A stretch of DNA of 64,000 nt from an uncultured Gammaproteobacteria bacterium (lineage in GTDB: Bacteria > Pseudomonadota > Gammaproteobacteria > JBBQDK01). This document shows positions 3,375 to 63,708 of the stretch, in pieces. The notes beneath the pieces were generated by a model. That model made no database searches. It had not been told where the DNA came from and saw only the letters and a list, made by a program, of their open reading frames with translations. The position numbers and the translations under genes were made by a program. The stretch is from positions 205,805 through 269,804 of the forward strand of contig CAVZVG010000005.1 in NCBI GenBank assembly GCA_963778665.1. Direction: 5' to 3'. Numbering within the stretch: the first letter of the stretch is position 1; the number at the start of each line of letters is the position of its first letter.

Positions 3375-3452
3375 GTACAGTGGTCCTGCTGCGCACCCTG
3401 ATAAGTGCCGCGACGCCGCAGCTCCTGTTCGATCCCGTTCAACACACGCCAT

Positions 3453-4298: not shown

Positions 4299-4531
4299 CT
4301 TCGACGGAATCCGACTGTGCCGCGATGCATTACAGGCGTCCGCCAAAACACATCTTTTCCGTAGAAACGCCGAGGACGCGGAGAATATGAATGTTGCTTT
4401 TGATAGCTATGCGCCCTCTGCGGAAGATGCTCATAATCATAGGTGCATACTTGGCCCTGGATTGAGACAAATTCCAATATCAACGAACTCATGAGAAGAT
4501 GGATTTATGCCGTGTCCGTGCGCATGACACA

Positions 4532-4545
4532 TTGATGTGGATCAA
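4532..4545. promoter_or_regulatory. Perfect FNR-consensus box TTGATGTGGATCAA
   Basis: TTGAT-N4-ATCAA palindrome in the yhcC-ubiUV / NMO-family divergent intergenic region, about 70 nt upstream of the likely ATG at 4609. Confidence 0.5.
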
Positions 4546-4608
4546 TCCCATCACACACAGTTGCCGTATCATCTTTCGATTCCAAGAGTGCCCGAGATTC
4601 CGCCCGCA

Positions 4609-5778: not shown

Positions 5779-6409
5779 ACACCCTGTTCGGATGTACTGT
5801 TTGGTGGAATCAGAGTCACCGGATCCGATGGCGTATCCGATAGGAAATTGTAACTTCTCTCATTGCCAGACTCCGACCAGCCCGCGACATAAAGCAAGCT
5901 GATCGAGACCATGTGAACGGCAGCTTTTGACTGAAAAGCCGACGCATGGAACGATAGACTTTGACCCACTCCGGTCGTTCAGTCATTCCTTACAATCCCG
6001 GCTGCTAACAGACGTGAAACGGCCCAAATCGAGGCTTACACATTGTACTTCGTGAAATATTACGCGACGCGGATAAGTAAATTATCCAGCGGCGTGTCAG
6101 ATAACCCGACAACCAGGCAGCAACGGTGTTTCTGCAACATATACCCACGGTCCAGTCACTTTCCTGCCCTGCACGTATCCAGTGCTGTCAGTATATTTAA
6201 CATCATCACCACGCATCCATTCTGCTGAAAATTGCCGCGAATAATTCATCACCAAAAAAACAGTGCATTAGATGCCTGCGCCACCTGGCTGGAATGAATC
6301 TTGCCCGTAGTTATAAAAATAAGCGGTCCATGAATCGACGCAGACCGGCGGCCTCCTGAATAGAACTGGGATTGAGCCAACGACAAAGGTTTTTTACGGA
6401 GAACGTCAC

Positions 6410-7061
6410 ATGAAACGATTTCGGTTAACCAGTGCTGTCTGTGCCGCTGTTTTCGGTTTTATCACGTTGCCATCCCATGCCGCATTAGTAGCTCGGGACC
6501 TGGATGGTAACCTGACCACCGCCGAGGCCTATTACGATACTATCGCGGACCTGACTTGGCTGGCGGATGCCAATGCGGCGGGAACGACCATGAACTGGGC
6601 TGATGCCAACGCCTGGGCGGCCAGTCTCGACATCAATGGCGTCACCGGCTGGCGGCTACCCTCCTCGTTAAATTCTGATGGTTCCGGTCCCTGTGGCCCA
6701 TCCTTCTACTGCACCGACAGCGAGATGGGAAACCTGTTCCATAGCGTATTGGGTGGTACAGCGGGTTATTCGATCACCACAACCCATAACAGCAACTATG
6801 ACCTGTTTTCCAACGTCCAGTCCAGACTGGTATTGGTCTGCCATGGAGTACGCGCCCAATCCTCCTCGCGACGCGTGGGTCTTCAACTTCATTGGTGGCG
6901 GCATCCAGAGCGCTAGTATTAAGACCGCTAGCTACTATGCGTGGGCTATACAGTCAGGCGATGTCGGCGCGGCCGTTGTACCGGTACCCGCCGCGTTCTG
7001 GTTGTTCGGCAGTGGTTTGTTGGGGCTGATTGGAGCCTCCTCGCGAAAGCAAGCAGCCTGA
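6410..7061 (+). CDS. DUF1566 (Lcl-like) domain protein with a PEP-CTERM sorting signal, interrupted by an apparent +1 frameshift near 6820
   Basis: Signal peptide MKRFRLTSAVCAAVFGFITLPSHA, then ..GWRLPS.. (frame of 6410) continuing as DWYWSAMEY..AWAIQSGDV plus VPVPAAFWLFGSGLLGLIGASSRKQAA (frame of 6678). The shift falls in a GTCCAGTCCAG direct repeat. GC is lower than the flanks. Confidence 0.55.
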
Positions 7062-7619
7062 TCAAATTCATACATGAACGGCACTTCGGAGCCGTTCTCC
7101 TTTACGCGGGAATGTCGCATTCTGGCCGAACTGTGCCAGTCGTGTTTTTAGGCTGAACGGCCTATTTCGACCCAACCCCGCCGTTCAGGCTGGCGCAATA
7201 ACTCGCCGTCAATTTTCCCGACTCGGTCATTCGAGCTGGGACATGAAACCTCCATCAGGGGCCCTAAGGTTGTATTCTGGACGTGCTATCGAGAAGCTGG
7301 GCACGCAAGAACCGGTAGCTGGTGCCATGGAATGAAATAACAAGCCGATATTAATCCTCAAACAGTCATGCTTCATTTGGAAAATAATTTAGGCTTCGTA
7401 GTGGGAGTTCACGTTGTTGATTTGACTATCGGCAAAAGTGATAGGGAGCTCAATTGATCCGTTTGCAACGGAGCTTTTAAGCCCCCCATCAGTAGTTAGC
7501 TTATATAATTAAGTGTCTTCTAGAAATATGAACTTGACTATTGTGGGCAAGTTTCAGATTGGCCTCTTGTTTATTATGGTAGTGAGAGGGTAACTTTGAA
7601 AGCGATAAACACAATATGG

Positions 7620-8263
7620 ATTTCCACTGCGCCACGTACTGGTTCTATGTCGGCTTTTCAATGTGGCACGAGAAATTCTTCGGACCGTAGGACTTCAAGT
7701 TGAACCTGAGGTTACACTGCAAAGTGATGAGGATATGTTTCGGCAAGCTACTCAGTTTGCATCTGCCTCGCATGATCCAACCAAGGTATGGGTGCTGAAG
7801 GTTCATAAGATCCTTAGGCCGGATCTTCATCGATCGAAAGTGATTACCACGACCGGGATCCGCGCGATGTGCTAGTGTCTTCAAGGAATTTATGAAGACC
7901 AGTTTTGACGAGTCACTCGGTTGCGCCAGATCGGTAGTACACTATACCGAAACTTATAAGGACTATGACCCCAGTTACCTCATGCTAGTAGTTTACAATG
8001 ATATTGAGACGCGCCCGGTAGAATTAATACTGGAGATTGCGGAGTTTCTTGAGGTTCAGGTCAGTGAAATTAATGCCAGGAAAATAGCTCTGAAGTACTC
8101 ACGAGAAAAAGTCAAGAGCCTCATCGAAAAATCCAACAAGTCGCTGGCCAAGAAGCTTGCTAGAGAAAGAAACCAATCGACCACAGCGATATGGTTTACA
8201 TTTCCGATCCTAATTTCCGTGCTTTTGATCGCAAGCAGGCTTTCAAACCGGGAATGTCTATAA
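7620..8263 (+). pseudogene. Decayed sulfotransferase-family gene remnant with multiple frameshifts
   Basis: Motif fragments sit in three frames: KVWVLKVHKILRPDL, RDPRDVLVS at ~7858 (the classic sulfotransferase 3'-PB motif), and a C-terminal YDPSYLMLVVYNDIETRPVELILEIAEFLEV. The region is AT-rich. Confidence 0.5.
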
Positions 8264-8716
8264 ACGAAAAACCGGGGACTGGAAAACGTATTGTCCAAAA
8301 TTGAACAGCAACAATTGAATGATGAATTTGGCAATTGGTTGAAAATGTTTGGTTACCTGGAATAACGCAGCTTAGCAGTGCGTAGTGAGCAGGGGTTGAA
8401 TCGATTTGCAGCTGGACAGGCACTTTGCATTCTCCCCAAAAAAGGCGAATGCCATTTAAACTGTCAGTCGACAGCTCGAGAAGGGCGCATAGCAATCATT
8501 AAAAAAATAGCTCAAGCCGGCGCAAAAACACGCGCGGCTTAGCATTGCTTTACGAATTACCGATTATGGGGTCACGAATGTCAGATAATATCGGTTCACG
8601 ACTGGCAAGTTATGGCCGGATTCGGCCAATGAGAATCCCGATTTGCACAGAGAATCCATGTCCGATATTGAGTGGATTTAGCATAAAGTGACAACGGTCT
8701 CAGGATCTATCAAAGA

Positions 8717-9733
8717 TCAACAAATCCGCGGCAGCGGATCATCTTCCAGTTCTTCGAGGAGACGCTGGCCGCCGAGTTCTGTCTCCAACACCACGTGCGC
8801 GCGACCGGTCTGCAGCGTGCCGATGATGGCTGCCTCCGCGCATGGCGTCAGCGTTTGCAGCGCTGCCAGCGCGGCCGTCGCATGCGCGGCATCGACCACG
8901 GCCAGCACCCGGCCTTCGCAGGCGAGGTACAGCGGGTCGTAGCCGAGCATCTCGCAGACCGAGCGCACCGGATCGCGCACCGGAATCGCGGCGCCGTCGA
9001 GATGCACGCCGAGCTGGGTGGCGCGACAGATTTCATTGGCCACGGTGGCCAGACCGCCACGGGTCGGATCGCGCATGAAGCGCAGGCCAGGCACGGTCAG
9101 CAAGGCCTGCGCGATCGGCAGCACACTGGCGGCATCCGATTGCAGATCACCGCGCAAACCGAACTGCTCGCGCGCCAGCATCACCGCCGTGCCGTGATCG
9201 CCCACCGGTCCGCTGATCAGCAGCCGGTCGCCGGCCTGAATGGTGGACATGCCGAGCCGCACCGACGTGTTGCGTACACCGATGCCGGTGGTGGCGAAGT
9301 AAACACCGCCGCCCTCCCCGCGCCGCAGCACCTTGGTATCGCCCGCGACAATCTGCACTCCGGATTCGCGCGCGGCGCGCGCCATGCTGATCACGATGCG
9401 CTCCAGCAGCGCGACCTCCAGACCTTCCTCGATGAATGCGTTCAAGGTGAGATAGCGCGGGATCGCGCCGGAGACCGCCAGGTCATTCACCGTGCCGTGC
9501 ACCGCCAGACTGCCGATGTCGCCGCCGGGAAACTCCAGCGGCTGCACGGTGAAGCCATCGGTGGTCACGACCATTTCGCCGGCGTCCGCCCAGGGTACCG
9601 TGGCCGCGTCGACGTCGGTCGACAACAGGGGATTGGCCAGATGACGCGCGAACAACTCTTCGATCAGCTCGCGCATGAAGCGTCCGCCGTTGCCATGGGC
9701 CAGTGAGATATGGGTATCCTGCATGTTCGTCAT
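8717..9733 (-). CDS. hypE: [NiFe] hydrogenase maturation protein HypE (carbamoyl dehydratase)
   Basis: MTNMQDTHISLAHGNGG.. N-terminus and C-terminal ..PRIC are HypE hallmarks; about 338 aa. Confidence 0.85.
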   Translation of the reverse strand: MTNMQDTHISLAHGNGGRFMRELIEELFARHLANPLLSTDVDAATVPWADAGEMVVTTDGFTVQPLEFPGGDIGSLAVHGTVNDLAVSGAIPRYLTLNAFIEEGLEVALLERIVISMARAARESGVQIVAGDTKVLRRGEGGGVYFATTGIGVRNTSVRLGMSTIQAGDRLLISGPVGDHGTAVMLAREQFGLRGDLQSDAASVLPIAQALLTVPGLRFMRDPTRGGLATVANEICRATQLGVHLDGAAIPVRDPVRSVCEMLGYDPLYLACEGRVLAVVDAAHATAALAALQTLTPCAEAAIIGTLQTGRAHVVLETELGGQRLLEELEDDPLPRIC

Positions 9734-9925
9734 GAGTCGTCCTGAGTCGATGTCCTGTCGACAGTTTACACGGAATCGCCGCATTCACAGCCCGGTTCAT
9801 CGCTGGTCACGACGGAATTTCCTGATATGATGCGCGGGGCCGGAATTCATGCGGTCTTGCAATCACGGCAGCCGTTAACGGCACGACCGTTTCCGGATAA
9901 CGACGATAATATTTGGAGAATCGCC

Positions 9926-51248: not shown

Positions 51249-53579
51249 CTATGGAATTCCAGACGTATGCGCCTCATCCCTGTTCATCACTTCGATGACC
51301 TGACCGAAACTGATACCGGCATCGTTGCACGGCAGCGCTGCAGGGAGATGCACCTCGAAACCGTTCGCCTGCAGCAGCGTAATGGCAAGCTCGGTGAGCA
51401 CACGATTCTGAAACACGCCGCCGGCCAAACCGACGGCGAATAGGCCGTGCAATTCGCGCACAGCCAGGGCCTGATCGAGCAGCGCCTGTGCCAGACTGGC
51501 ATGGAAGCCCGCGGCACGCTCGCCGACAGTGCGCCGTTCATCCGACAAATAAGGCAACAGCGGCGCCCAGTCGCTACACAACACACCGTCGGCATCCGGT
51601 GTCTGCGGTAGCGACACCGGCGCGGCGCCAGGTTCAGAGTGCGCTGCGGCAATCGCCTCCAGCAGCATCGGCCCCTGTCCTTCGTAACTGGCCGATTCGA
51701 TCAGGCCCAACAGCGCACTCGCGGCATCGAACAGACGACCGACCGCGCTGGTCGCGGGTGCATTGATGCGCTTGATCCAGGCCTGCCGCACCAACTCGAT
51801 GTCGGCAATGGTGCCTTGCCAGCTTGATTCACTTTCCCAGCACAAGGCTGCCGCGGAACGCCAGGGTTCACGACCCGCGCGTTCACCACCCGGCAGATGA
51901 AACGGCCGGAAGCTTGCCACACGCCGCCAATGTCCGGGGGCGCCGAGCAAGGCCTCACCACCCCACAGACTGCCGTCGGCGCCGTAACCCACGCCATCCC
52001 AGGTGAATATCAGCCAGTCCGGCACCTCGGGAAATTCGCCTGCCAATGCACTGGCATGCGCGTGATGATGCAGAACTGTCTGCACGGGCAGCGCGCCGCG
52101 CTTCGCCCAACGTGTGCTGGCATAGCCCGGATGCGCATCGCAGACAATGCGCATTGCGCTGATCTGATACAGATCCTGCAGATCACGGATCACCTGCTCG
52201 AACACTGCCAGACTGCGCGGCGCATCGAGATCGCCGATGTGCGGCGAAATCACGACCCGGTTCTCCCAGGCCAGCGCGATGGTGTTTTTCATGTGCCCGC
52301 CGACAGCCAACAGTGGCTGCACAAGCGTGTGCGGCAGCGTCAACTCAAGCGGCGCGCTGCCACGACCGAGCCGCAATGGCCGCGCCTGACCGGCAATGAT
52401 GCGATACACCGGATCATCCGCCGGACGCGCGATCGTGCGGTTGTGATGCAGGAAGGACTCGGCGACGTGCGGCAGGCGCGCCTCCACCTCGGCATTGTCG
52501 GTCAGCACCGGTTCGCCGCTGATGTTGGCCGAGGTCGCGACCAATGGTGCACCGAAGTCTTCCAGCAACAGATGATGCAGCGGACTGTACGGCAGAAACG
52601 CGCCGACCTCGTTGAGACCCGGGGCGATGGCAGGCGCCAAGACCGATAGGGAGCGGCGTTGTACGAGTACGATGGGGCGCATCGGATCGCAGAGCAGTTG
52701 CGCCTGCAGGGCATCGGGCCGCAGAGACTCCCGCACCGCATCGAGACCGTCGACACCACGCCAGGGAAACATGACGGCCAGCGGTTTGTGCGGACGCGGC
52801 TTGCGGGCGCGCAAACGCAGCACGGCCGTTTCGTTACTTGCATCGCACATCAGATGATAGCCACCGATGCCTTTCACAGCGACGATGCAGCCGCTGCGCA
52901 AGGCCGCGACCGCGGCGGCCAGTGCGTCCGTCGTTTCCACGATCAACGCCCCATCCGCCGTCCGATATTGCAGGGATGGGCCGCAACGCGGACAGGCCAC
53001 CGGTTCGGCATGGAAACGCCGGTCGAGCGGGTTTTCATACTCCGCGCGGCACGCCGCGCAGAGCGTGAAACCGGCCAGTGTGGTATTGGGCCTGTCGTAG
53101 GGCAGTCGCGTGATCAGCGTATAACGCGGACCGCACTGCGTGCAGTTGATGAATGGATAACGATAGCGGCGATCGCGCGGATCGCGCAGTTCACGCAGGC
53201 AATCGTCGCAGGCGAAATAATCGGGTGGAACGTGAATGCGGGCCGGCAGATCACCGCGGCTGGCCTCGATGTTGAATGCCGCGAAGCCCTGTTTCGACAC
53301 GACTGTACTGGACAGGATGCGCGGTCGCGCCAGAGGCGGAGCCTCCTGCAACAGCGCGGCCTCGAATGCCTCCAGCGCCGGCGCCGCACCCTCGACGTGA
53401 ATCTCGACCTGGCCCGCAAGGTTCTGCACCCGGCCTTTCAGGCCATGCCATTGTGCCAACCGGTAGACGAACGGACGGAAGCCCACGCCCTGTACGCGGC
53501 CGTCGAGCAGCAAGCAGCGCGCGCCGACAGCGGAATCGACCACCGCCTCATCAGGCATTGCCGGCGGACGTTCATCCAT
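51249..53579 (-). CDS. hypF: Carbamoyltransferase HypF
   Basis: Acylphosphatase domain (RVQGVGFRPFVYRLA), two Zn-finger CxxC pairs, YrdC-like and Kae1-like domains; 776 aa. Confidence 0.9.
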   Translation of the reverse strand: MDERPPAMPDEAVVDSAVGARCLLLDGRVQGVGFRPFVYRLAQWHGLKGRVQNLAGQVEIHVEGAAPALEAFEAALLQEAPPLARPRILSSTVVSKQGFAAFNIEASRGDLPARIHVPPDYFACDDCLRELRDPRDRRYRYPFINCTQCGPRYTLITRLPYDRPNTTLAGFTLCAACRAEYENPLDRRFHAEPVACPRCGPSLQYRTADGALIVETTDALAAAVAALRSGCIVAVKGIGGYHLMCDASNETAVLRLRARKPRPHKPLAVMFPWRGVDGLDAVRESLRPDALQAQLLCDPMRPIVLVQRRSLSVLAPAIAPGLNEVGAFLPYSPLHHLLLEDFGAPLVATSANISGEPVLTDNAEVEARLPHVAESFLHHNRTIARPADDPVYRIIAGQARPLRLGRGSAPLELTLPHTLVQPLLAVGGHMKNTIALAWENRVVISPHIGDLDAPRSLAVFEQVIRDLQDLYQISAMRIVCDAHPGYASTRWAKRGALPVQTVLHHHAHASALAGEFPEVPDWLIFTWDGVGYGADGSLWGGEALLGAPGHWRRVASFRPFHLPGGERAGREPWRSAAALCWESESSWQGTIADIELVRQAWIKRINAPATSAVGRLFDAASALLGLIESASYEGQGPMLLEAIAAAHSEPGAAPVSLPQTPDADGVLCSDWAPLLPYLSDERRTVGERAAGFHASLAQALLDQALAVRELHGLFAVGLAGGVFQNRVLTELAITLLQANGFEVHLPAALPCNDAGISFGQVIEVMNRDEAHTSGIP

Positions 53580-53592
53580 GGGAAATGCGCTC

Positions 53593-53614
53593 TTGTTTCA
53601 TAGTGTGGAAACAA
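53593..53614. promoter_or_regulatory. Palindrome TTGTTTC-N8-GAAACAA immediately upstream of hypF; candidate regulator site
   Basis: 22-bp perfect inverted repeat in the 268-nt hypD/hypF gap, about 15 nt from the hypF start codon. Confidence 0.3.
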
Positions 53615-53847
53615 CCATGAAAAACTCCGCTCATGTGTTACTGCACCGATCAGAGTCATTACATGGAACAGCCTTCCTCACGCGCCGTCCTGCACAGGAC
53701 TCAAGTGACGAGATTGTTTTGAGCGGGTACTCAAGCCGCACGGAGGACAGCGGAGCCTGGGTGAAATACTGTCTGCATGACTTATCCCGGCTCCCGAATG
53801 CGGCATCAACGCACTGGCAGAACGCGGCAACGGCGCGTGTCCGATCG

Positions 53848-54963
53848 TCACTCGACCGGGGCCGTGTCCGGCCGCGCCTCGCGTACGCCGCTGGCCCACC
53901 AGATACGGCAGGCCCCCTCATCGGATACCATGCACGGACCGATCGGATGACGCGGGTGACAGGCGCGACCGAACAGACGGCATTGGTCGGGATAAATCTT
54001 ACCCAGCACGACCTTGGCGCAATCGCAGCCCGGCGGCATCTCGCCGATACGTTTGCGTGTCGGATCGTCATGCGCGGGCAACTGCAGCCGGGCATCGTGC
54101 TGCGCGAACGCCGGCTTGAGCGCGAATCCCGAGGCGGGAATCATGCCTACGCCACGCCAGTTGGCGGCGACGACATCCAAGGCCGAATCGAGACACTCCC
54201 TTGCTTTGACATTGCCGCCGGGCCGCACCACTTCGGGGTAGCAGTTGTCGAGAAAGCGCTCGCCTTCGATGAGTTGGCGCAAGGTGGAGTACATGGCCGC
54301 GAGCAGTGTTTCGGGCGCGAAACCGGCGATGGCGGATGGAATGCGATGTTTCTCGACCACGAACCGCCATTCTTCCGGGCCCATGATCGTGGCGACATGA
54401 CCCGGCGCGACCAGGGCGTCGAAACCCGGCGTGTCGGAATCGAGCAGCATGGCCACCGCCGGCCAGGTGAGGCGGCCGGAGAGCAGCACCAGCAGATTGT
54501 CCGGTATGCCTTCCATCAGCATGCCGGCGACCGGTGCGGTGGTGGTTTCGAAGCCGGCGGCGAAGAACACCACCGTGCGTGACGGTTCCGCCCGCGCGAT
54601 GCGCACCGCCTCGCTTGGCGAGGCGATCGGCCGCACATCCGCACCCGCCGCCTTGGCCTCTTCCAGCGAACGGATATCACCTTTCGGCACATTGACCGGC
54701 ACGCGCAGCATGTCGCCGAACGCCACCAGGATCAGGTCTTCCTTGAGCGCCAGCTGGATGGCTTCGTAGACATCCTCTTCAGGACAGACGCACACCGGAC
54801 AACCCGGACCGGGTATGAGCTCGATATTCTTGGGCAAGGCACCGCGCAAGCCGGCCATGGAAATGGCGCGCTCATGACCGCCGCACACGTTCATGATTCG
54901 CACCTTGTCCGGCAAGGGCAGTTGGCGGATCTTTTTCAGCCAGTCCTGGGCACTCAGCTGCAT
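53848..54963 (-). CDS. hypD: Hydrogenase maturation factor HypD
   Basis: CGGHE, GPGCPVC, CPVC.., ..FETT.. motifs; 371 aa. Confidence 0.9.
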   Translation of the reverse strand: MQLSAQDWLKKIRQLPLPDKVRIMNVCGGHERAISMAGLRGALPKNIELIPGPGCPVCVCPEEDVYEAIQLALKEDLILVAFGDMLRVPVNVPKGDIRSLEEAKAAGADVRPIASPSEAVRIARAEPSRTVVFFAAGFETTTAPVAGMLMEGIPDNLLVLLSGRLTWPAVAMLLDSDTPGFDALVAPGHVATIMGPEEWRFVVEKHRIPSAIAGFAPETLLAAMYSTLRQLIEGERFLDNCYPEVVRPGGNVKARECLDSALDVVAANWRGVGMIPASGFALKPAFAQHDARLQLPAHDDPTRKRIGEMPPGCDCAKVVLGKIYPDQCRLFGRACHPRHPIGPCMVSDEGACRIWWASGVREARPDTAPVE

Positions 54964-55097
54964 TGGATTTCTCCCGCCTTCAGCGAAGCAAAAGATCAGT
55001 GACGATCAAGCGCGGCAAAACGCATTGTGAAAATGCATAAAGTGCCGGACTTTGCGCGTTGCCGCGCCTTGTGTTGTGGCCATGCCGCAGTGCGCAT

Positions 55098-55883
55098 TCA
55101 CAATATCTGGGAATCGCGCCGCTTGTGCACATGCCCGGCGACACCCTCACCCGCGTGCCGCAGTTCATCGCCGGCGCGCAAGGCAGCGACATGCTTGCGC
55201 AGCCAATTGGTCCAACCGTCCATGTCCAGACTCTTCTTTGCGGACAAGGCGATGACCGGCGCATCGCTGGCCAGGTTGCGCATATGTGCTTTGACCCGAT
55301 CGATGGAGAAGTCATCCATGTACGGCATGAGGTCGGTCTTGGTCACCAGCACGGCATCCGCGGCACGGAACATGACCGGATACTTGACCGGCTTGTCGTC
55401 GCCTTCCGTGACTGACAGCAGGATGACGTTCAGGTGCTGACCGAGATCGAAGCTGGCCGGACAGACCAGGTTGCCGACATTCTCGATAAAAAGGATATCC
55501 GCATTGTCGAGTGTCATGTGGTGGAGTGCATCGTGCACCATATGCGCATCGAGATGGCAGGCCGTGCCCGTGCTGATCTGATGGGCGGGCACGCCCTTGG
55601 CACGAATGCGCTCGGCATCGTTTTCGGTTTCCAGATCGCCTTCGATGACGGCGATGCTGAATTCATCTTTCAGGGCATCGATGCTCGCTTCGAGCAAGGC
55701 GGTCTTGCCGGCGCCGGGCGAGGACATGAGATTGATGACCAGCAGGTCGTGCTCATTGAAGTGCGCACGGTTGTGCGCGGCCTGATGGTTGTTCTCGGAC
55801 AGCAGCCCCTCCAGCACTTCGACGCTATGCGGATTTTCGGTCTTGTGCTGCTCGGTAACGTTGCAACCGCAGGTATCGCACAT
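55098..55883 (-). CDS. hypB: Hydrogenase nickel incorporation GTPase HypB
   Basis: N-terminal MCDTCGC metal site; P-loop SSPGAGKT; 261 aa. Confidence 0.85.
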   Translation of the reverse strand: MCDTCGCNVTEQHKTENPHSVEVLEGLLSENNHQAAHNRAHFNEHDLLVINLMSSPGAGKTALLEASIDALKDEFSIAVIEGDLETENDAERIRAKGVPAHQISTGTACHLDAHMVHDALHHMTLDNADILFIENVGNLVCPASFDLGQHLNVILLSVTEGDDKPVKYPVMFRAADAVLVTKTDLMPYMDDFSIDRVKAHMRNLASDAPVIALSAKKSLDMDGWTNWLRKHVAALRAGDELRHAGEGVAGHVHKRRDSQIL

Positions 55884-55906
55884 GTTCACATCCTCTCGCA
55901 GTCACT

Positions 55907-56251
55907 TCAGATCAGTAATTCGACACTTGCCAACAACAACTCGTCGCCGCTGACGAGTCGCGTATGCCAGTCGCCGCAGGCACCGCACAACAACCTGTTC
56001 GGCGCGGCCTCCGTCTCTTCGCCGCATTGGTCACAGCTTACCCGAACCGGCAGACACTCGACGATCAGCTTCGCCTCGGCGGCTACCGTGCCGGCGCGCG
56101 CCACCGGGAAGGCATGTTGCAACAGTTCCGGTTCCACACCGGACAACGGTCCGATACGAATCGTGATACTCGTTACGCCATGCGCCTGACGCTGCGCCGC
56201 GATCGCCTCGACCTGCTGCAGCATGCCCTGACAGACCGACAACTCATGCAC
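55907..56251 (-). CDS. hypA: Hydrogenase nickel insertion protein HypA
   Basis: MHELSVCQGML N-terminus; CDQCG...CGACG zinc motif; 114 aa. Confidence 0.85.
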   Translation of the reverse strand: MHELSVCQGMLQQVEAIAAQRQAHGVTSITIRIGPLSGVEPELLQHAFPVARAGTVAAEAKLIVECLPVRVSCDQCGEETEAAPNRLLCGACGDWHTRLVSGDELLLASVELLI

Positions 56252-56486
56252 CGTTGACGGCCGCCTCCGCTGCCAGCATCTCGTCGTACACCTCCCAGGC
56301 CGAGCGCGCTTCCTGCTCGGTCATCTTCTGGATTGCGTAGCCGACATGCACCATGACGAAATCGCCCGGCGCGATGGCTTCACCCTGCATAAGGAACAGA
56401 TTGACATCGCGCTCCACGCCCTTGGCGTTGCAACGCGCCAGAAAACCATCGATGGCGGAAATCTGCATGGGTATGCCGAGACACAT
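56244..56486 (-). CDS. hypC: Hydrogenase assembly chaperone HypC/HupF
   Basis: MCLGIPMQI N-terminus (essential Cys2); 80 aa; overlaps the hypA start by 8 nt. Confidence 0.85.
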   Translation of the reverse strand: MCLGIPMQISAIDGFLARCNAKGVERDVNLFLMQGEAIAPGDFVMVHVGYAIQKMTEQEARSAWEVYDEMLAAEAAVNGA

Positions 56487-56668: not shown

Positions 56669-56766
56669 AATGTCATCTGCAATCATTTTACGATGCACGT
56701 AGGCAGATTCAAATCCACGCCACCCGCAAGCAAGGACTTCTCAATAGTCACAATCTTGGCAAGGTA

Positions 56767-57252
56767 ATGGACTTCATAAAAATGACCAACAAAACCCTGA
56801 TACTCGGCCTGGGCAACACCCTTCTCGCTGACGAGGGCATCGGAATACACGCACTGAATGCCTTGCGATTGCAACCATCCGATTTTACCGACATCGAATA
56901 TCTGGATGGCGGCACACTCAGCTTCACCCTGGCCGGCCCCATCGAAGACGCCGACCAATTGATTGTCATCGACGCCGCCCAACTGCATGCGACACCGGGC
57001 ACGGTACAGGTCTTCGTCGGCGAAGACATGGACAGCTATCTTGGCAGCAACAACAAGCGCAGCGTTCATGAAGTCGGCCTGATCGATCTGATGGTCATCG
57101 CCCATCTCACCGACCGCTTGCCGAAACGCCGCGCGCTGATCGGCATACAACCCGAAATTGTCGACTGGGGCGACAGCCCGACCGCACCGGTGGCGGCAGC
57201 CATTCCCAAAGTCTGCGATCTGGCGCGCGACCTTATCAGGAGCTGGCAATGA
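56767..57252 (+). CDS. hupD: [NiFe] hydrogenase maturation endopeptidase (HupD/HyaD/HoxM family)
   Basis: ..TLILGLGNTLLADEGIGIHAL.. and ..HEVGL..; start at the Met of MDFIKMTNK (alternative 56782). Confidence 0.8.
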   Translation: MDFIKMTNKTLILGLGNTLLADEGIGIHALNALRLQPSDFTDIEYLDGGTLSFTLAGPIEDADQLIVIDAAQLHATPGTVQVFVGEDMDSYLGSNNKRSVHEVGLIDLMVIAHLTDRLPKRRALIGIQPEIVDWGDSPTAPVAAAIPKVCDLARDLIRSWQ

Positions 57253-57689
57253 CACGTCTGCAAGACATCGGCATCGAAGTCCGCAACGAACCGACTGAAG
57301 GCCTCGGCGCCGGCGTCAACGCCATACTCTATGAACTGACCGGCATGCTGGAAACCCTGCTCGAGGAAGGTCGCGGCAATGCCATCGACCTGCGCGGCCT
57401 GCCGCTGGCGCCCGGCGAATATGAACAACTGCGCGCCACGCTCGGCGAGGGTGAAGTCAGCGCCGAGGTCGACGCGCTGGGGCCGACCAGAATCCGCGAG
57501 ACCGCGATCCACGGCGTGTGGTGGGTCACGCATTACAACGCACAGGACCAGGTGCTGGCCGAGTTCCTGGAAGTGACCGACGTGCCGCAACTGCTCAAGA
57601 CCGAGCGGGATGACATCCGCGAGGGACTGGATCTGCTGAATGAACGCCTGGCATCTCTCGATGCGACAGGCGCGGATGAAGATTGTTGA
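57249..57689 (+). CDS. Short HupH/HyaF-family hydrogenase accessory protein (single HupH_C-like domain)
   Basis: ..IDLRGLPLAPGEYEQLRATLGEGEVSAEV..IRETAIHGVWWV.. resembles the HupH C-terminal domain. 146 aa versus about 280 aa for canonical HupH. Start overlaps the protease stop. Confidence 0.55.
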   Translation: MTRLQDIGIEVRNEPTEGLGAGVNAILYELTGMLETLLEEGRGNAIDLRGLPLAPGEYEQLRATLGEGEVSAEVDALGPTRIRETAIHGVWWVTHYNAQDQVLAEFLEVTDVPQLLKTERDDIREGLDLLNERLASLDATGADEDC

Positions 57690-57716: not shown

Positions 57717-58802
57717 ATGTCTACCGATATGAGTCTGCTTGAAACACTGCGTCGCCAGGGCGTGTCGCGGCGTTCCTTTCTGAAGTTCTGCGCGGCTACC
57801 GCTTCCCTGATGGCATTGCCGCCGACCATGGTCAGCGCGGTCGCCGAAGCGCTCGCCAAGGCCAAGCGGCCGTCGGTGATCTGGCTGTCGTTCCAGGAAT
57901 GCACCGGCTGCACGGAATCGCTGACGCGCTCGCACACACCGACGGTGGAAAACCTGATCTTCAACGCGATCTCACTCGATTACCATCACACCCTGATGGC
58001 CGCCTCCGGCACGGCTGCCGAAGCGGCGCGCGAATCCGCGATGAAGGAGTTCTACGGCAAGTACCTGTTGATCGTCGACGGCTCCATTCCGCTCAAGGAC
58101 GACGGCGTCTATTCAACCATCGCCGGTCGCACCAACCTCGACTTGCTGCACGAAGTCGCCAAAGGCGCTGCGGCGATCGTGTCGGTGGGTACCTGCGCCG
58201 CCTTCGGCGGGATTCCGCACGCCAACCCGAATCCGACCGGCGCGGTGGCCGTGTCCGACATCATCAAGGACAAGCCCATCATCAACGTGCCGGGCTGCCC
58301 GCCGATTCCGGTGGTCATCACCGGCGTGCTGGTGCACTACCTGACCTTCGGCACGATTCCCGACCTGGATGACAAGGGCCGCCCCTTATCGTTCTTCGGC
58401 GATTCCATTCACGATCGCTGCTACCGCCGGCCGTTCTACGACCAGGGCAAGTTCGCGAAAAGCTTCGACGACGAAGGCGCGCGCAACGGCTGGTGCCTGT
58501 ACGAACTCGGCTGCAAGGGTCCGACCACGCACAATGCCTGCGCCACGGTGAAATGGAATGGTGGCGTCAGCTTCCCGATCGAGTCCGGTCACGGCTGCCT
58601 GGGCTGTTCGGAACCGGATTTCTGGGACGCCGGCAGTTTCTACACGGCCCTGTCCATGTCTGCGGAACCCACCAAGGTCGTTGCCGCCGCGGCGGGCATC
58701 GGCGCGGTCGCCGGTGTCGCGGTCGCCGTCGCCAACCGGTTCAAGAAGGGGGGCGCGAAGTCGGCACATAAAACCACCACTCTGGACGATCTGGAGAAAT
58801 GA
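57717..58802 (+). CDS. hynS: [NiFe] hydrogenase small subunit, Tat-dependent, with C-terminal membrane anchor
   Basis: RRSFLKFCAATASLMALP Tat signal; FeS-cluster Cys ligands (..ECTGCTES.., ..GTCA..GCPP.., ..CLYELGCKGP.., ..GCLGC..); hydrophobic C-tail. Confidence 0.9.
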   Translation: MSTDMSLLETLRRQGVSRRSFLKFCAATASLMALPPTMVSAVAEALAKAKRPSVIWLSFQECTGCTESLTRSHTPTVENLIFNAISLDYHHTLMAASGTAAEAARESAMKEFYGKYLLIVDGSIPLKDDGVYSTIAGRTNLDLLHEVAKGAAAIVSVGTCAAFGGIPHANPNPTGAVAVSDIIKDKPIINVPGCPPIPVVITGVLVHYLTFGTIPDLDDKGRPLSFFGDSIHDRCYRRPFYDQGKFAKSFDDEGARNGWCLYELGCKGPTTHNACATVKWNGGVSFPIESGHGCLGCSEPDFWDAGSFYTALSMSAEPTKVVAAAAGIGAVAGVAVAVANRFKKGGAKSAHKTTTLDDLEK

Positions 58803-58803
58803 C

Positions 58804-59463
58804 ATGAACGACATTCAATTCCTGACCTGGGTACGCGGTCCCGGTCTGAACATCGCCATCGCCATTTTTCTGGTCGGCGTGGTCTGGCGTCTGGTGGAAA
58901 TCTACAGTCTGGGTCGGAAAAAAGATCTGTCCGCGCCGCGGCATGCAGCGGGCGCTTCCGGTTTGCATACGGTATTCCGCCGTTCGCTGCCACCGCCGGG
59001 CATGCTGAAACGCTCACCCGTCAGCTACGTCGGCGGCTATATCTTCCATATCGGCCTGGCCATCATCGTGTTCCTGTTCGCACCGCACATCAAACTGATC
59101 CAGAGCCTGATCGGTATTTCCTGGCCGGCGCTGCCGTCCCAGTTGGTGGACATGACGGCCGTCGTGACCCTGGCGACCATGGTGATCGTGCTGGCGGACC
59201 GCATCAGCAAACCCGTCAAGCGCTACCTGTCCACTTTCGAAGATTACTTTACCTGGACGATGACATTCCTGCCGGTGTTGACCGGCTATATGGCGGTAAA
59301 ACACATACTGGTGCCCTACACCACCATGCTGGCACTGCATATCCTCAGCGTGGAAATCCTGCTGGTGATCCTGCCCTTCACTAAATTGTTCCATGCCTTC
59401 ACGCTGTTTGGCTCGCGCTGGTACAACGGCCACGCCAACGCGCACAAAGGAGTCTCGGTATGA
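58804..59463 (+). CDS. isp1: Isp1: NarI/DsrM/HdrE-like b-type cytochrome membrane subunit of an Isp-type hydrogenase
   Basis: 219 aa from MNDIQFLTWV..; five TM helices with conserved His (..HIGLAII.., ..HILSVEIL.., ..FHAFTLF..). Confidence 0.75.
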   Translation: MNDIQFLTWVRGPGLNIAIAIFLVGVVWRLVEIYSLGRKKDLSAPRHAAGASGLHTVFRRSLPPPGMLKRSPVSYVGGYIFHIGLAIIVFLFAPHIKLIQSLIGISWPALPSQLVDMTAVVTLATMVIVLADRISKPVKRYLSTFEDYFTWTMTFLPVLTGYMAVKHILVPYTTMLALHILSVEILLVILPFTKLFHAFTLFGSRWYNGHANAHKGVSV

Positions 59464-60722
59464 GCGCATCATTGGAAAAAGGCGTCCAGGTCCTGAAAGA
59501 GATGATCGACGCACCTATCGCCAGCTATTTCAGCAGTTGCGTGCATTGCGGCCTGTGTGCCGAGGCCTGCCTGTTCTATACGGAAACCGGCGACCCCAAG
59601 TACACGCCCATCCACAAGCTGGAGCCCATGCGCCGCATCTACAAACAGGAATACACCCTGCTCGGCCGGCTCGGCAAAATGCTCGGCCTTTCCAAACCCG
59701 TGACCGACGCCGAACTGGAAGAGTGGAAGGAGCTGGTCTACAACAGTTGCACCTTGTGCGCCCGCTGCTCGCTGGTCTGCCCGGTGGGCAACGACATCGT
59801 CTACATGGTGCGCAAATTCCGCGAAGGTATGGCCGTCTCCGGTCATGCGCCGGAGGGTCTGATCGGCGCGGTGACACGTACGGTCGAGATCGGCAGCCCG
59901 ATGGGCGTGAAGCTGCCCGCCGTGCAAGCCCAGATGAAACATCTGAAGGAAGATGAAGGTCTGGAAGCCCCCATGGACGTACAGGGTGCCGAATACATGG
60001 TGCTGCTGTCCTCCATGGAGGTCATCAATTTTCCGGAATACCTGGGCGCCATCGCCAAGATCATGAAACAGGCCGGCAAGACCTGGACACTCTGTTCCAC
60101 CGCCTTCGAGGCCACCAACGCAGGCATTCAGATCGGCAACGCCGATCTGGCCAAGCTGATCGTTTCACGCATCGTGGACGGTGCCGAACGCCTCAAGGTC
60201 AAGACGGTCATCAGTCCCGAGTGCGGTCACGCCTACACGGCCTTGCGTTGGGACGGTGCCAATCTCATCGGCCGGCCCTTTACCTTCAAAGTGCTACACA
60301 TCCTCGAAGTCCTGGAGGAATTCCGCATCCAGGGTCTGCTCAAGACCGAAGGCTTCGAAACCTCGAGAGTCACCTTCCACGATCCCTGCCAATTGGTTCG
60401 TCGCGGCGGCGTTATCGAGCCCCAGCGCAATCTGCTGAACATGGTCGCCAAGGACTTCGTGGAGATGGATGACCCGGGCAAGTACAACTGGTGTTGCGGT
60501 GGTGGTGGCGGTGCCAGCGCCATCGAAGAAGGCGAGGAACTGCGCCTGCAAGTCTTCACACGCAAGAAAGCCCAGTTGGATAAGACCGGCGCCAAGACTC
60601 TGGTCACCGCCTGCGCCAACTGCCGCATCGTTCTGGAAGAGGGTCTGGAGCATTACAAAATGGATATCCCGGTGGTCGGCCTGACGGAAACGATTGCCGC
60701 ACATCTGGTCCAGGACAAATAG
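59460..60722 (+). CDS. isp2: Isp2: HdrD/DsrK-like Fe-S protein with CCG domains
   Basis: CVHCGLCAEAC and CTLCARCSLVCP ferredoxin motifs; two CCG-like Cys-rich domains (..DPCQ.., ..NWCCGGGGG.., ..ACANC..). Confidence 0.8.
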   Translation: MSASLEKGVQVLKEMIDAPIASYFSSCVHCGLCAEACLFYTETGDPKYTPIHKLEPMRRIYKQEYTLLGRLGKMLGLSKPVTDAELEEWKELVYNSCTLCARCSLVCPVGNDIVYMVRKFREGMAVSGHAPEGLIGAVTRTVEIGSPMGVKLPAVQAQMKHLKEDEGLEAPMDVQGAEYMVLLSSMEVINFPEYLGAIAKIMKQAGKTWTLCSTAFEATNAGIQIGNADLAKLIVSRIVDGAERLKVKTVISPECGHAYTALRWDGANLIGRPFTFKVLHILEVLEEFRIQGLLKTEGFETSRVTFHDPCQLVRRGGVIEPQRNLLNMVAKDFVEMDDPGKYNWCCGGGGGASAIEEGEELRLQVFTRKKAQLDKTGAKTLVTACANCRIVLEEGLEHYKMDIPVVGLTETIAAHLVQDK

Positions 60723-60745
60723 CGAACTAGAGGAGCACACAGGAC

Positions 60746-61192
60746 ATGGCTATCAGTAACGACAGTGAATTCAAGACCGCATTGGATACTCTTTCGGCCG
60801 CCAGACAGCGCCTGTTGGCCGCCCTGTTCACCGAACGTGTTTTGTATCTGTGCAACGACGTTCGGGTGGCCGGCGCGATCAGTGCGGCAAAACGGCCGGA
60901 CATCACCGATGTGGAACTGTCCGCCCTGCATCAGGCCGTCAAGACCGTCAGCATCGAAAGTTATACCCAGTGCGGCCACGAGACGGACTGGATGGCGCAG
61001 GCCGGGCACTTTGTCGCCAAGGCCGCCATGGCCTGCATGCAGCCCGCCGGGCCCGGCACCAATCTGGCCTGGGACGCGGCGATGGCCAGCCGCGTGGCGC
61101 GCACTTGCGAAGCCATCACTTCTGGCCAGGGTACAGCGAACAGCGAAGCCGAAACCCAGTACCGTCTATCGGAAGAGTATTTGAAACAATAG
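60746..61192 (+). CDS. Hypothetical 148-aa cytoplasmic protein with 4 Cys, inserted between isp2 and hynL
   Basis: Good RBS (AGAGGAG), ATG start, host-like codon usage, tight spacing to isp2 (24 nt) and hynL (38 nt). No recognisable family. Confidence 0.55.
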   Translation: MAISNDSEFKTALDTLSAARQRLLAALFTERVLYLCNDVRVAGAISAAKRPDITDVELSALHQAVKTVSIESYTQCGHETDWMAQAGHFVAKAAMACMQPAGPGTNLAWDAAMASRVARTCEAITSGQGTANSEAETQYRLSEEYLKQ

Positions 61193-61229: not shown

Positions 61230-62990
61230 ATGAGCGCACAAACCGTCGTCGTCGATCCCATCACCCGCATCGAGGGCCATCTGCGCATCGAGGCCGAAAC
61301 CGATGACAGTGGCACCATCACCCACGCCTCCAGCGCCGGCACCATGGTGCGCGGCATCGAATTGATCCTGCGCGGCCGCGACCCGCGCGATGCCTGGGCA
61401 TTCGCGCAGCGTATCTGCGGCGTCTGCACGCTGGTGCACGGTCTCGCCTCGGTGCGTTCCGTCGAGGACGCGTTGAAATACGAGATCCCGCCCAACGCGC
61501 AGCTGATCCGCAATCTCATGATCGGCGCGCAATACATCCACGACCATGTGATGCATTTCTATCACCTGCATGCGCTGGATTGGGTGGACGTGGTCTCGGC
61601 GCTGAAGGCCGATCCCAAGGCGACCTCGGACCTCGCGCAATCGATCAGCAATTACCCGAAGTCCTCGCCCGGCTATTTCGCCGACATGCGCAAGAAGCTC
61701 CAGAACTTCGTCGAGGCCGGCCAGCTCGGTATTTTCGCCAACGGCTACTGGGGTCATCCCGCCTACAAGCTGCCGCCGGAAGCGAATCTGATGGCGGTCG
61801 CGCATTACCTCGAGGCACTGGCCTGGCAGCGTGATGTCGCGCAGTTGCACACCATCTTCGGCGGCAAGAACCCGCATCCGAATTTCCTGGTCGGCGGTTC
61901 ACCGGCCGCGATCAGCGTTCATCCCGGTAACGTGGGCCAGAACAATGGCGGTGGCGCGGGCGCCACCGCGGTCAACATGGTCGGCCTGCAGAGAGTCAAG
62001 GAGATCATCGGGCAGATGAGTGATTTCGTCGATCAGGTGTATGTACCGGATACGCTCGCCATCGCCGGCTTCTACAAAGACTGGGCCACGCAGGGCGAAG
62101 GCATCGGCAACTTCATGACCTACGGCGATCTGCCGTCGAAAAGCATGGCCGATCCGTCCAGTTTCCTGATCCCGCGCGGTGTGATTCTCGATCGCGATCT
62201 GTCCACCATCCATCCGATCGATCTCAACGCCGACGACGAAATCCAGGAATATGTCGCGCACTCCTGGTACGACTACAGCGTCGGCAAGGACAAAGGCCTG
62301 CACCCCTACAAGGGCGAAACCAACCTGAACTACACCGGTCCGAAGCCGCCGTACGAGCATCTGGAAACCGACAAGAGCTACTCGTGGCTGAAATCGCCAC
62401 GCTGGAAAGGCAAGGCCGTCGAAGTCGGACCGCTGGCGCGCGTGCTGATGCTGTACGCCACAGGCCATGAACAGACCAAGGAACTGGTGAACATGACACT
62501 CAGCAAACTCGACGTGCCTGTGCAGGCGTTGTACTCCACGCTCGGCCGTACCGCCGCGCGCACGCTCGAAACCAAGATCATGGCCGATGCCATGATGGGC
62601 TGGTACACCGATCTCATGACCAACATCAAGGCCGGCGATCTCAAGACCCACAACGAGAAACTCTGGGATCCGTCCACCTGGCCCAAGACCGCCAAGGGCG
62701 TCGGCTACATGGAAGCCCCGCGTGGCGCGCTGGCGCACTGGATCGTCATCAAGGATGCAAAGATCGACAACTACCAGGCTGTCGTGCCCAGCACCTGGAA
62801 CGCCGGCCCGCGCGACCCCATGGGGCAGGACGGACCCTACGAAGCCGCGTTGAAGGGCACCAAACTGTATGACGCCAAACAACCTATCGAGATCCTGCGC
62901 ACCATCCACAGCTTCGATCCCTGCATCGCCTGCGCGGTGCACGTGACCGACCCGGAGGGCGAGGAACTGGTCAAGGTGAAGGTCAGATAA
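61230..62990 (+). CDS. hynL: [NiFe] hydrogenase large subunit
   Basis: N-terminal RICGVCTLVH and C-terminal DPCIACAVH Ni-Fe ligand motifs; 586 aa. Confidence 0.9.
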   Translation: MSAQTVVVDPITRIEGHLRIEAETDDSGTITHASSAGTMVRGIELILRGRDPRDAWAFAQRICGVCTLVHGLASVRSVEDALKYEIPPNAQLIRNLMIGAQYIHDHVMHFYHLHALDWVDVVSALKADPKATSDLAQSISNYPKSSPGYFADMRKKLQNFVEAGQLGIFANGYWGHPAYKLPPEANLMAVAHYLEALAWQRDVAQLHTIFGGKNPHPNFLVGGSPAAISVHPGNVGQNNGGGAGATAVNMVGLQRVKEIIGQMSDFVDQVYVPDTLAIAGFYKDWATQGEGIGNFMTYGDLPSKSMADPSSFLIPRGVILDRDLSTIHPIDLNADDEIQEYVAHSWYDYSVGKDKGLHPYKGETNLNYTGPKPPYEHLETDKSYSWLKSPRWKGKAVEVGPLARVLMLYATGHEQTKELVNMTLSKLDVPVQALYSTLGRTAARTLETKIMADAMMGWYTDLMTNIKAGDLKTHNEKLWDPSTWPKTAKGVGYMEAPRGALAHWIVIKDAKIDNYQAVVPSTWNAGPRDPMGQDGPYEAALKGTKLYDAKQPIEILRTIHSFDPCIACAVHVTDPEGEELVKVKVR

Positions 62991-63062: not shown

Positions 63063-63653
63063 ATGAGCACGCGAGCAAGACAACAATTGATCATCGCCCT
63101 TTGCGCACTGGCCCTGCCACTCACCGCATCGGCACATATTCTCGGCATGCATGGCGCCGGCTTCATGCAAGGCCTGTTGCATCCACTCTCGGGACTCGAT
63201 CATCTGCTGGCCATGTTCGCGGTGGGACTCTGGGCCTCGCAACTCGGCGGTCGGGCGTTGTGGGCCGTTCCCCTGGCTTTTGTCGGCACCATGGTGCTGG
63301 GCGCCGTCCTCGGCATGACAGGTTATGCGCTGCCCTTTACCGAGACCGTCATCGTACTGTCGGTGCTGACGCTGGGCCTGATGATCAGCTTCGCGGTACG
63401 CCTGCCGACCGCTGTCGGCATGTTGCTGGTCGGCGTGTTCGCCCTGTTCCATGGCCATGCACACGGCACCGAACTGCTGCAGGCCTCGTCCGCGTCGGCT
63501 TATGCACTCGGCTTTGTCATCACGACCGCGGCTCTGCACGGTGTCGGCATTTTCGCCGGGCTCGGCCTGTCACGGATCGAGTCGCGGCAATTGGTACGCG
63601 CCGGCGGTGTCGCCATCGCGATGACAGGACTGGCACTGTTGCTGAACATCTAG
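63063..63653 (+). CDS. hupE: HupE/UreJ-family nickel/cobalt transporter
   Basis: Signal peptide; conserved HILGMHGAG and ..FHGHAHG.. His-rich motifs; six TM helices. Confidence 0.8.
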   Translation: MSTRARQQLIIALCALALPLTASAHILGMHGAGFMQGLLHPLSGLDHLLAMFAVGLWASQLGGRALWAVPLAFVGTMVLGAVLGMTGYALPFTETVIVLSVLTLGLMISFAVRLPTAVGMLLVGVFALFHGHAHGTELLQASSASAYALGFVITTAALHGVGIFAGLGLSRIESRQLVRAGGVAIAMTGLALLLNI

Positions 63654-63683
63654 AAACACACCCCTATCCTCCGCTGTCTTTCA

Positions 63684-63708
63684 CGCCCCGCTCTGCGGGG
63701 CGTTTTTT
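63684..63708 (+). terminator. Rho-independent terminator (CGCCCCG-CTCTG-CGGGGCG then T6)
   Basis: Perfect 7-bp GC stem followed by TTTTTT, 30 nt after the hupE stop. Confidence 0.7.

Follow-up and report, generated by a model that had tools for sequence, protein, structure and literature searches.

orfX, a gene for a protein of 148 residues, is a widespread and unrecognised companion of Isp-type hydrogenases in sulfur- and iron-oxidising bacteria. These enzymes (group 1e) are usually described as four-gene units, hynS-isp1-isp2-hynL, and to our knowledge no cytoplasmic acceptor of the HdrD-like Isp2 has been identified so far. As a fifth gene conserved through at least four rearrangements, orfX is a testable candidate to fill this acceptor gap or a gap in the set of accessory genes. 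A published attempt to express the enzyme heterologously, using the known accessory genes of Thiocapsa itself, yielded none in active form (PMC3102683), and orfX is present yet unannotated in a Thiocapsa genome. The gene would define a new protein family for hydrogenase annotation, of use for the study of H2 metabolism in Thiobacillus, Gallionellaceae, purple sulfur bacteria and chemosynthetic symbionts. We tentatively favour, with a probability of about 45%, the reading that its product binds proteins in the cytoplasm and acts there as an accessory or assembly factor for the hydrogenase.

Results

The hydrogenase locus and the position of orfX

The gene was noticed in a stretch of 64,000 nucleotides from an uncultured gammaproteobacterium, hereafter called the window, in which the following features were located (positions are counted from the first letter of the window).

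51249 to 56486, minus strand: hypF-hypD-hypB-hypA-hypC maturation genes, divergent from the genes below
56764 to 57689, plus strand: hupD (maturation endopeptidase, start approximate) and hupH (HupH_C domain)
57717 to 58802, plus strand: hynS, Tat-exported hydrogenase small subunit (Tat signal, PF01058 and PF14720)
58801 to 59463, plus strand: isp1, TmcC/HmcE-like membrane cytochrome b (start approximate; TmcC-like, 5.9e-42)
59460 to 60722, plus strand: isp2, HdrD/DsrK/HmcF/TmcB-like Fe-S protein (Fer4 and CCG domains, the latter PF02754; DsrK-like, 3.9e-66)
60729 to 60735, plus strand: Shine-Dalgarno-like AGAGGAG, 10 nt 5' of the orfX ATG
60746 to 61192, plus strand: orfX (ATG start, TAG stop, 148 residues)
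60971 to 61009, plus strand: orfX codons 76-88, conserved core loop and start of helix 5 (Cys76-Gly77...Asp81-Trp82...Gln85...His88)
61106 to 61108, plus strand: orfX Cys121 codon (helix 6), the second family-wide cysteine
61230 to 62990, plus strand: hynL, [NiFe]-hydrogenase large subunit (PF00374, 9e-236)
63063 to 63653, plus strand: hupE (HupE/UreJ family), final gene of the unit
63683 to 63703, plus strand: strong intrinsic-terminator-like hairpin (9 pairs, 8 of them G-C, and a T-run), directly 3' of hupE

The plus-strand genes follow each other in the order hupD-hupH-hynS-isp1-isp2-orfX-hynL-hupE. With a Tat-exported small subunit, a large subunit, and isp1 and isp2 between the two, the locus is that of an Isp-type (group 1e) [NiFe]-hydrogenase. 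The domain matches agreed with the neighbours that the earlier note, made from the letters alone, had named for this ORF, i.e. hynS-isp1 and then isp2 upstream, and hynL downstream. From hupD to hupE, the only other terminator-like site on the plus strand was a weak 5-pair stem within hynS. Because there is no strong internal terminator, and a strong one follows hupE, orfX is internal to a single unit running from hupD to hupE.

Two side observations were made in the window. A HypE-like gene (AIRS and AIRS_C domains) lies at positions 8717-9784 on the minus strand, about 45 kb from the hypFDBAC cluster. Isp1 (58801-59463, plus strand) gave no Pfam match above threshold, and its matches to the NCBIfam TmcC and HmcE membrane-anchor models were well below the cut-offs, so that Isp1-type cytochromes b appear to be without a curated model of their own.

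orfX is a genuine gene under purifying selection

The coordinates of orfX, its AGAGGAG ribosome-binding site, its ATG and its length of 148 residues were re-checked and found to be as previously claimed. A small correction applies to the spacings, which had been given as 24 and 38 nt and were re-measured as 23 nt (isp2 stop to orfX ATG) and 37 nt (orfX stop to hynL ATG). The codon usage was indeed host-like, the GC3 of orfX (0.74) falling inside the range of the neighbouring genes (0.71-0.83). Over 33 orthologs, the median dN/dS was 0.24, with values of 0.05-0.25 for the closest pairs. The N-terminus M-x-I-x-N-D was kept in the orthologs examined, and a purine-rich GGAG-like stretch was present at a similar distance from the start in most of the 32 orthologous loci examined. 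Among 5.8 billion proteins searched there were 185 homologs at E ≤ 1e-3, nearly all of them 146-149 residues long, and more than 600 cluster representatives were found over two protein searches.

Long chance ORFs are abundant in high-GC DNA, and two related loci (L036 and L040) are degraded, which could suggest that orfX is a spurious ORF or a functionless, decaying remnant. This explanation is effectively refuted by a dN/dS well below 1, by the conservation of length, start and ribosome-binding site, by the number of cluster representatives and by the confident predicted fold described below.

In the first of the two degraded loci, from a Thiotrichales MAG (L036:5647-6459), an intact orfX comes directly after a fragment of 98 residues that matches HynS at its N-terminus only (HynS residues 4-73, with the Tat signal region); SbcCD-like genes adjoin and there are no isp or hynL genes. 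It is a decayed or rearranged hydrogenase locus that has retained orfX. In the second, an Isp-type locus from a Gammaproteobacteria MAG (L040, about 2000-8300), the tblastn pieces of hynS, isp2 and hynL are split or overlapping and orfX is recognisable at residues 84-121 only; either the cluster is pseudogenised or the assembly is poor.

OrfX belongs to a small, uncurated family

The OrfX family is small, coherent and uncurated. An exhaustive profile search of 1.84 billion representatives gave 203 clusters at E ≤ 1e-3, corresponding to a family size of about 200 clusters at 50% identity. The source databases name its members "hypothetical protein", the exceptions being a small number of JGI labels that are evidently spurious. 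Pfam and NCBIfam gave nothing above noise for OrfX or for 68 homologs, and PDB sequence searches, with the single sequence and with a profile, gave nothing significant for OrfX. These blank searches confirmed that the 148-residue product has no recognised family, as had been stated. When OrfX was compared with the Pfam and NCBIfam models at E ≤ 0.1, no match was obtained to the known hydrogenase accessory families (HypC/HupF, HupH/HyaF, HyaE/HupG, HybE/HupJ, HupK and HypA/B), nor was there one among the 68 members. There was also no DsrC/TusE model match for OrfX or the 68 homologs, and the C-terminus of OrfX is devoid of cysteine. OrfX showed neither a family-model match to the redox-enzyme maturation proteins TorD, NarJ and DmsD nor the all-helical TorD fold.

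The published descriptions that we checked agreed with the claim that the canonical order is hynS-isp1-isp2-hynL, with nothing between isp2 and hynL. For Thiocapsa, isp1 and isp2 are the two genes reported to lie between hynS and hynL (PMC3102683), and the order described in A. ferrooxidans is hynS-isp1-isp2-hynL (PMC7735108). In T. denitrificans, hynD is Tbd_1380 and hynL is Tbd_1375 (PMC3753534), which leaves no tag for an additional gene if the intervening tags follow the usual order. We found no prior description in the literature of an extra gene in Isp loci, in searches that also covered TmcD. The earlier note had envisaged that homologous operons might commonly carry this ORF under an existing annotation; it is commonly carried, but it is annotated as "hypothetical protein" only.

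Predicted properties and fold of OrfX

OrfX is a soluble, acidic (pI 5.3), all-alpha protein, with a GRAVY of -0.14 and a maximal 19-residue Kyte-Doolittle hydropathy of 1.0. It is probably cytoplasmic; no RR motif was found in its first 40 residues, nor any hydrophobic segment or signal peptide. Its four cysteines (residues 36, 76, 97 and 121) are all in the contexts previously quoted (LYLCND, TQCGHE, MACMQP and RTCEA), but only two of them are conserved in the family. Among 124 family members, the distant group being left out, Cys76 was present in 122, Cys121 in 119, both in 118 and His88 in 112; Cys97 (59/124) and Cys36 (27/124) are lineage-specific. Members without Cys121 often have an extra cysteine at position 80 (L031, L032). 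The core motif reads T-x-C76-G...D81-W...Q85-A-x-H88-F-V-A...A-W109...R116-M-A...C121...E134...Q138-Y, and OrfX contains no CxxC motif.

With an alignment of 68 sequences, AlphaFold2 predicted a fold of seven helices for OrfX with a pLDDT of 93.2 and a pTM of 0.89. The lowest pLDDT values were those of residues 71-80; as this is the least confident stretch of the model, the Cys76 loop is probably flexible. The folds closest to that of the model were those of the immunity protein SsdAI and of DUF416, both compact helical modules, and DUF416 was ranked first by Foldseek (TM 0.66-0.67). Membership of DUF416 was considered and rejected. Neither OrfX nor any of the 68 homologs matched DUF416 at E ≤ 1, and hhalign comparison of two OrfX family profiles with E. 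coli YjaG gave probabilities of 0.05-0.11%. The likeness of OrfX to DUF416 is therefore structural only.

orfX accompanies hydrogenase genes in several gene orders

At least four gene orders tie the orfX family to [NiFe]-hydrogenase clusters, the great majority of which are of the Isp type. When one genome was scanned for each species, 40 orfX loci were identified, 38 of which had the order hupD-hupH-hynS-isp1-isp2-orfX-hynL or the part of it held by the contig. These loci came from Thiobacillaceae, Gallionellaceae, Hydrogenophilales, Nitrosomonadales, Azonexaceae, Rhodoferax, Thiohalobacteraceae and Thiotrichales. Divergent members (42-49% identity) showed the same order in a Solemya symbiont, in Endothiovibrio diazotrophicus and in one further lineage. 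In total, orfX was found between isp2 and hynL at 47 loci from several lineages, and this is the usual order in Thiobacillaceae, Gallionellaceae, Hydrogenophilales, Nitrosomonadales, Thiohalobacteraceae, Endothiovibrio and the Solemya symbiont. The median gap between isp2 and orfX in this class was 4 nt (-4 to +6 nt in 38 of 45 loci), and that between the orfX stop and the hynL start was 12 nt (42 loci). The idea that this is an "extra" gene peculiar to the present locus is thus not supported, isp2-orfX-hynL being standard in several lineages. Nor is it a locus-specific insertion, since clades with a classical isp2-hynL junction carry orfX elsewhere in the cluster or beside it.

Further arrangements were found by scanning metagenomes with a divergent sub-alignment, followed up with tblastn and Pfam classification, the ORFs of high-GC loci being called with a GC3-aware method. 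At nine loci, orfX follows hynL at the end of the operon, with gaps of 10-50 nt. At 38 loci it lies at the edge of the cluster: pntAB and a ppsR-like gene, both on the opposite strand, are followed by orfX, by hypC on the opposite strand, and by hupD-hupH-hynS-isp1-isp2-hynL on the same strand as orfX. At these loci orfX is monocistronic, with the opposite-strand hypC between it and hupD. The named members of this clade, which were obtained by searching with one cluster-edge OrfX protein, are Chromatiaceae, namely Thiohalocapsa, Halochromatium, Lamprobacter, Thiorhodovibrio and Thiocapsa bogorovii. The name T. bogorovii now applies to strain BBS, in which Hyn/Isp has been studied as a model. 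Its orfX homolog is found in the left-hand part of the cluster-edge order, beside hypC and hynD. In T. bogorovii (CP089309.1, L133:9001-12139) a DDE transposase gene comes after hynD, where related loci carry hupH-hynS-isp1-isp2-hynL; the structural genes are absent from the stretch examined and are presumably elsewhere in the genome.

A fourth order, hynS-hynL-cytochrome b-hupD-orfX, is that of a cytochrome-b-type hydrogenase (L102, L122 and L123), whose 11-kb locus contains no isp genes, neither between hynS and hynL nor at any other place. Multihaem cytochrome, sulfur-transport/rhodanese and molybdopterin-oxidoreductase genes come next. In L102 (145-10920) they encode a multihaem cytochrome c, a sulfur-transport/rhodanese fusion and a Tat-signal molybdopterin oxidoreductase. 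This locus may be a module in which H2 is coupled to a sulfur compound.

In a neighbour-joining tree of 130 family members, the arrangements mostly tracked the clades. The isp2-orfX-hynL order nevertheless occurs in it at least three times, once nested in the clade with orfX after hynL, indicating that orfX has moved repeatedly without leaving the cluster. In every hydrogenase-linked order it abuts hynL, hypC or hupD, that is, the gene for the large subunit or for one of its maturation factors, and this favours an accessory role.

Relatives away from hydrogenase genes

In one subclade (L067, L068, L069, L074, L079 and also L081), the gene order is Fur - DUF1820 - ankyrin-repeat lipoprotein - orfX - BolA, sometimes with a Grx-like gene next, and there are no hydrogenase genes within 6 kb. 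Such neighbours hint at a connection with the homeostasis of iron, Fe-S or thiols. Another subclade is found near LysR, DsrC-like and CDGSH genes. The most distant relatives (about 30% identity) are without Cys76, have a YCRMARTC motif, and adjoin GGDEF and CheB/CheR-kinase genes, Usp genes, or apparent V-type ATPase A/B genes.

On one short metagenome contig (L044:457-960), a 167-residue relative with about 32% identity is encoded between apparent V/A-type ATPase A and B subunits, after the C-terminus of the A subunit and before the N-terminus of the B subunit; here too the gene is wedged into an operon, in this case one for an unrelated enzyme. Thiohalocapsa MAGs (L046:7001-7549, and L047) have a hydrogenase-cluster-type orfX plus a distant paralog of 182 residues. 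The paralog is flanked by a PAS-GGDEF protein on one side and a CheB/CheR-histidine-kinase fusion on the other, suggesting that the OrfX fold was recruited to signalling there.

These contexts raise the question of whether OrfX is a general small helical adaptor or regulator, e.g. a metal, iron-sulfur or redox sensor, whose link with hydrogenase is regulatory. Such a role would fit with the signalling neighbours of the distant Thiohalocapsa relatives, with the subclade beside Fur and BolA and with the separate transcription of orfX in Chromatiaceae-type loci. It would also be compatible with the fold relatives, as DUF416/YjaG has no assigned function and SsdAI acts by pairing with another protein. 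We consider it quite unlikely, however, because no DNA-binding or signalling domain was matched in OrfX with Pfam or NCBIfam, because regulators are not usually encoded in the middle of a block of structural genes, as orfX is in most lineages with 4-nt junctions, and because the distant relatives found in signalling contexts are without Cys76 and have a different core motif.

Discussion

Possible functions of OrfX

The two hypotheses that had been put forward for this protein, a dedicated assembly or chaperone factor and a redox partner of the hydrogenase, are still those that fit. In the first, which we prefer, OrfX would serve periplasmic [NiFe]-hydrogenase systems, mostly those of the Isp type (group 1e), as a dedicated accessory component, acting as a protein-binding helper before Tat export. 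We infer that it may use a conserved face, comprising the Cys76-Gly77 loop, helix 5 (Asp81-Trp82, Gln85 and His88-Phe89) and helix 6 (Trp109, Arg116 and Cys121), to hold on to a component of the hydrogenase while cofactors are inserted or the enzyme is assembled. Its target would most plausibly be HynL or its maturation machinery (HypC, HupD), and the Cys-His-Cys triad may bind a metal or keep the thiols of the partner reduced.

This accessory role is favoured by the fact that orfX is a real gene with a confident fold, part of one transcription unit, with tight junctions in its orthologs, and by a linkage that survived rearrangement. The association with a hydrogenase whose locus contains no Isp genes also points to it, as do the closest folds, which are compact helical modules, one of them (SsdAI) being the partner of the toxin SsdA. 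A further argument is that small ORFs in operons for hydrogenases and other Tat-exported redox enzymes have historically proved, for the most part, to encode maturation chaperones (HupF-K, HoxL-V, HyaE/F, and NarJ within narGHJI). HypABCDF, HupD, HupH and HupE are all encoded adjacently in the hydrogenase cluster of the window, and no HyaE/HupG-, HybE/HupJ- or HupK-type chaperone was matched among the adjacent genes scanned; this leaves room for a non-homologous helper. An argument against an accessory role is that OrfX has no homology to any known maturation factor. In addition, the existence of family members away from hydrogenase genes implies that its molecular activity may be more general.

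Experimental data from the literature constrain this accessory role. HynSL of T. roseopersicina was active in Synechococcus with Alteromonas accessory proteins alone (PMC3102683), and we found no orfX homolog in any plasmid record, including the Alteromonas hydrogenase plasmids. It follows that OrfX is not strictly required for an enzyme that is active in vitro, at least when the unrelated Orf2 of Alteromonas is present. Orf2 of Alteromonas macleodii, which is encoded just upstream of hynD-hupH-hynS, is reported to be needed for maximal HynSL activity in E. coli (PMC3102683). Like OrfX, it is an uncharacterised protein from a hydrogenase locus. It was rejected as a characterised homolog of OrfX, as it has 407 residues, tblastn gave no match and the hhalign probability was 0.07%. 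The Orf2 gene (L132:4764-5987, plasmid pAM1A3 of Alteromonas macleodii) encodes a protein with no Pfam domain, which forms an uncharacterised family of its own.

In the second hypothesis, OrfX would work with the HdrD-like Isp2 in the cytoplasm as its thiol or persulfide partner, be it as a substrate, a carrier or a small subunit. Electrons released from H2 in the periplasm would then pass from HynS to the haem b of Isp1, to the CCG site of Isp2 and finally to a disulfide or persulfide on Cys76/Cys121 of OrfX, a route proposed by analogy with the action of DsrK on DsrC or with TmcD in the Tmc complex. Tmc/Hmc/Dsr-type systems use small cytoplasmic partners, and the best matches of Isp1 and Isp2 are to the TmcC/HmcE and DsrK/HmcF/TmcB models, respectively. 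Further points in its favour are the tight translational coupling of orfX to isp2 in 38 of 45 loci, the occurrence of nearly all hydrogenase-linked members in Isp-type clusters, and the presence of two near-invariant cysteines, one of them on a probably flexible loop. The contexts without hydrogenase also have a thiol or sulfur flavour (BolA, Grx-like, DsrC-like and rhodanese/sulfur-transport genes). Isp1 and Isp2 have been described as necessary for electron transfer in vivo and not for maturation (PMC3102683), and a partner of Isp2 would accordingly be dispensable for activity in vitro. Several observations fit poorly, however: orfX is also found with the cytochrome-b-type hydrogenase whose locus is devoid of isp genes; in Chromatiaceae-type loci it is transcribed separately and adjoins hypC and hupD, not isp2; and its product has no similarity to DsrC/TusE, no C-terminal cysteine arm and no CxxC. 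This partnership is the main rival of the accessory role, and on balance we regard it, with the electron route that it would entail, as less likely.

The consequences differ. If OrfX is a partner of Isp2, taking up electrons from H2 or supplying sulfur, it would physically couple Isp-type hydrogenases to sulfur metabolism. If it represents a new class of assembly factor, which does not exclude the former, this would explain the poor maturation of Hyn-type enzymes in heterologous hosts equipped with the known accessory genes only. Should a knockout show that orfX is dispensable, the finding would shrink to that of a conserved hypothetical protein with a DUF416-like fold.

Comparison with known systems

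The DUF416 protein YjaG (PDB 3f7c, 2q9r) shares its three-dimensional fold with the OrfX model. DUF416 proteins are about 45 residues longer, and yjaG of E. coli, unlike orfX, adjoins hupA (HU-alpha) and no hydrogenase genes. We found no functional data on DUF416/YjaG in the literature. SsdAI (PDB 7jtu_B) resembles OrfX in fold, with 10% identity. It is the immunity and partner protein of SsdA, a T6SS deaminase toxin, whereas none of the orfX loci examined had a toxin or T6SS context, and we know of no link of SsdAI to redox enzymes.

The closest precedents for a partner of Isp2 are DsrC, the substrate of DsrK, and TmcD, a small cytoplasmic subunit of the Tmc complex. The partners of both are a CCG protein of the HdrD-like type and a membrane cytochrome b, which are homologous to Isp2 and Isp1, respectively. 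DsrC uses two conserved cysteines, but its fold differs from that of OrfX, and its redox cysteines are on a C-terminal arm whereas those of OrfX are internal (positions 76 and 121).

With respect to the accessory role that we prefer, the comparison is with HyaE/HupG/HoxO, HybE/HupJ/HoxT, HupH/HoxQ, HupF/HoxL and NarJ/TorD, which, like OrfX, are small, cytoplasmic and encoded in or beside the structural operon. The gene for NarJ likewise lies between structural genes. Judged by this context, OrfX would represent a new family among the accessory proteins that are associated with hydrogenases, its fold being DUF416-like, and it resembles the maturation chaperones of the HyaE, HybE and NarJ types in being co-inherited with its enzyme.
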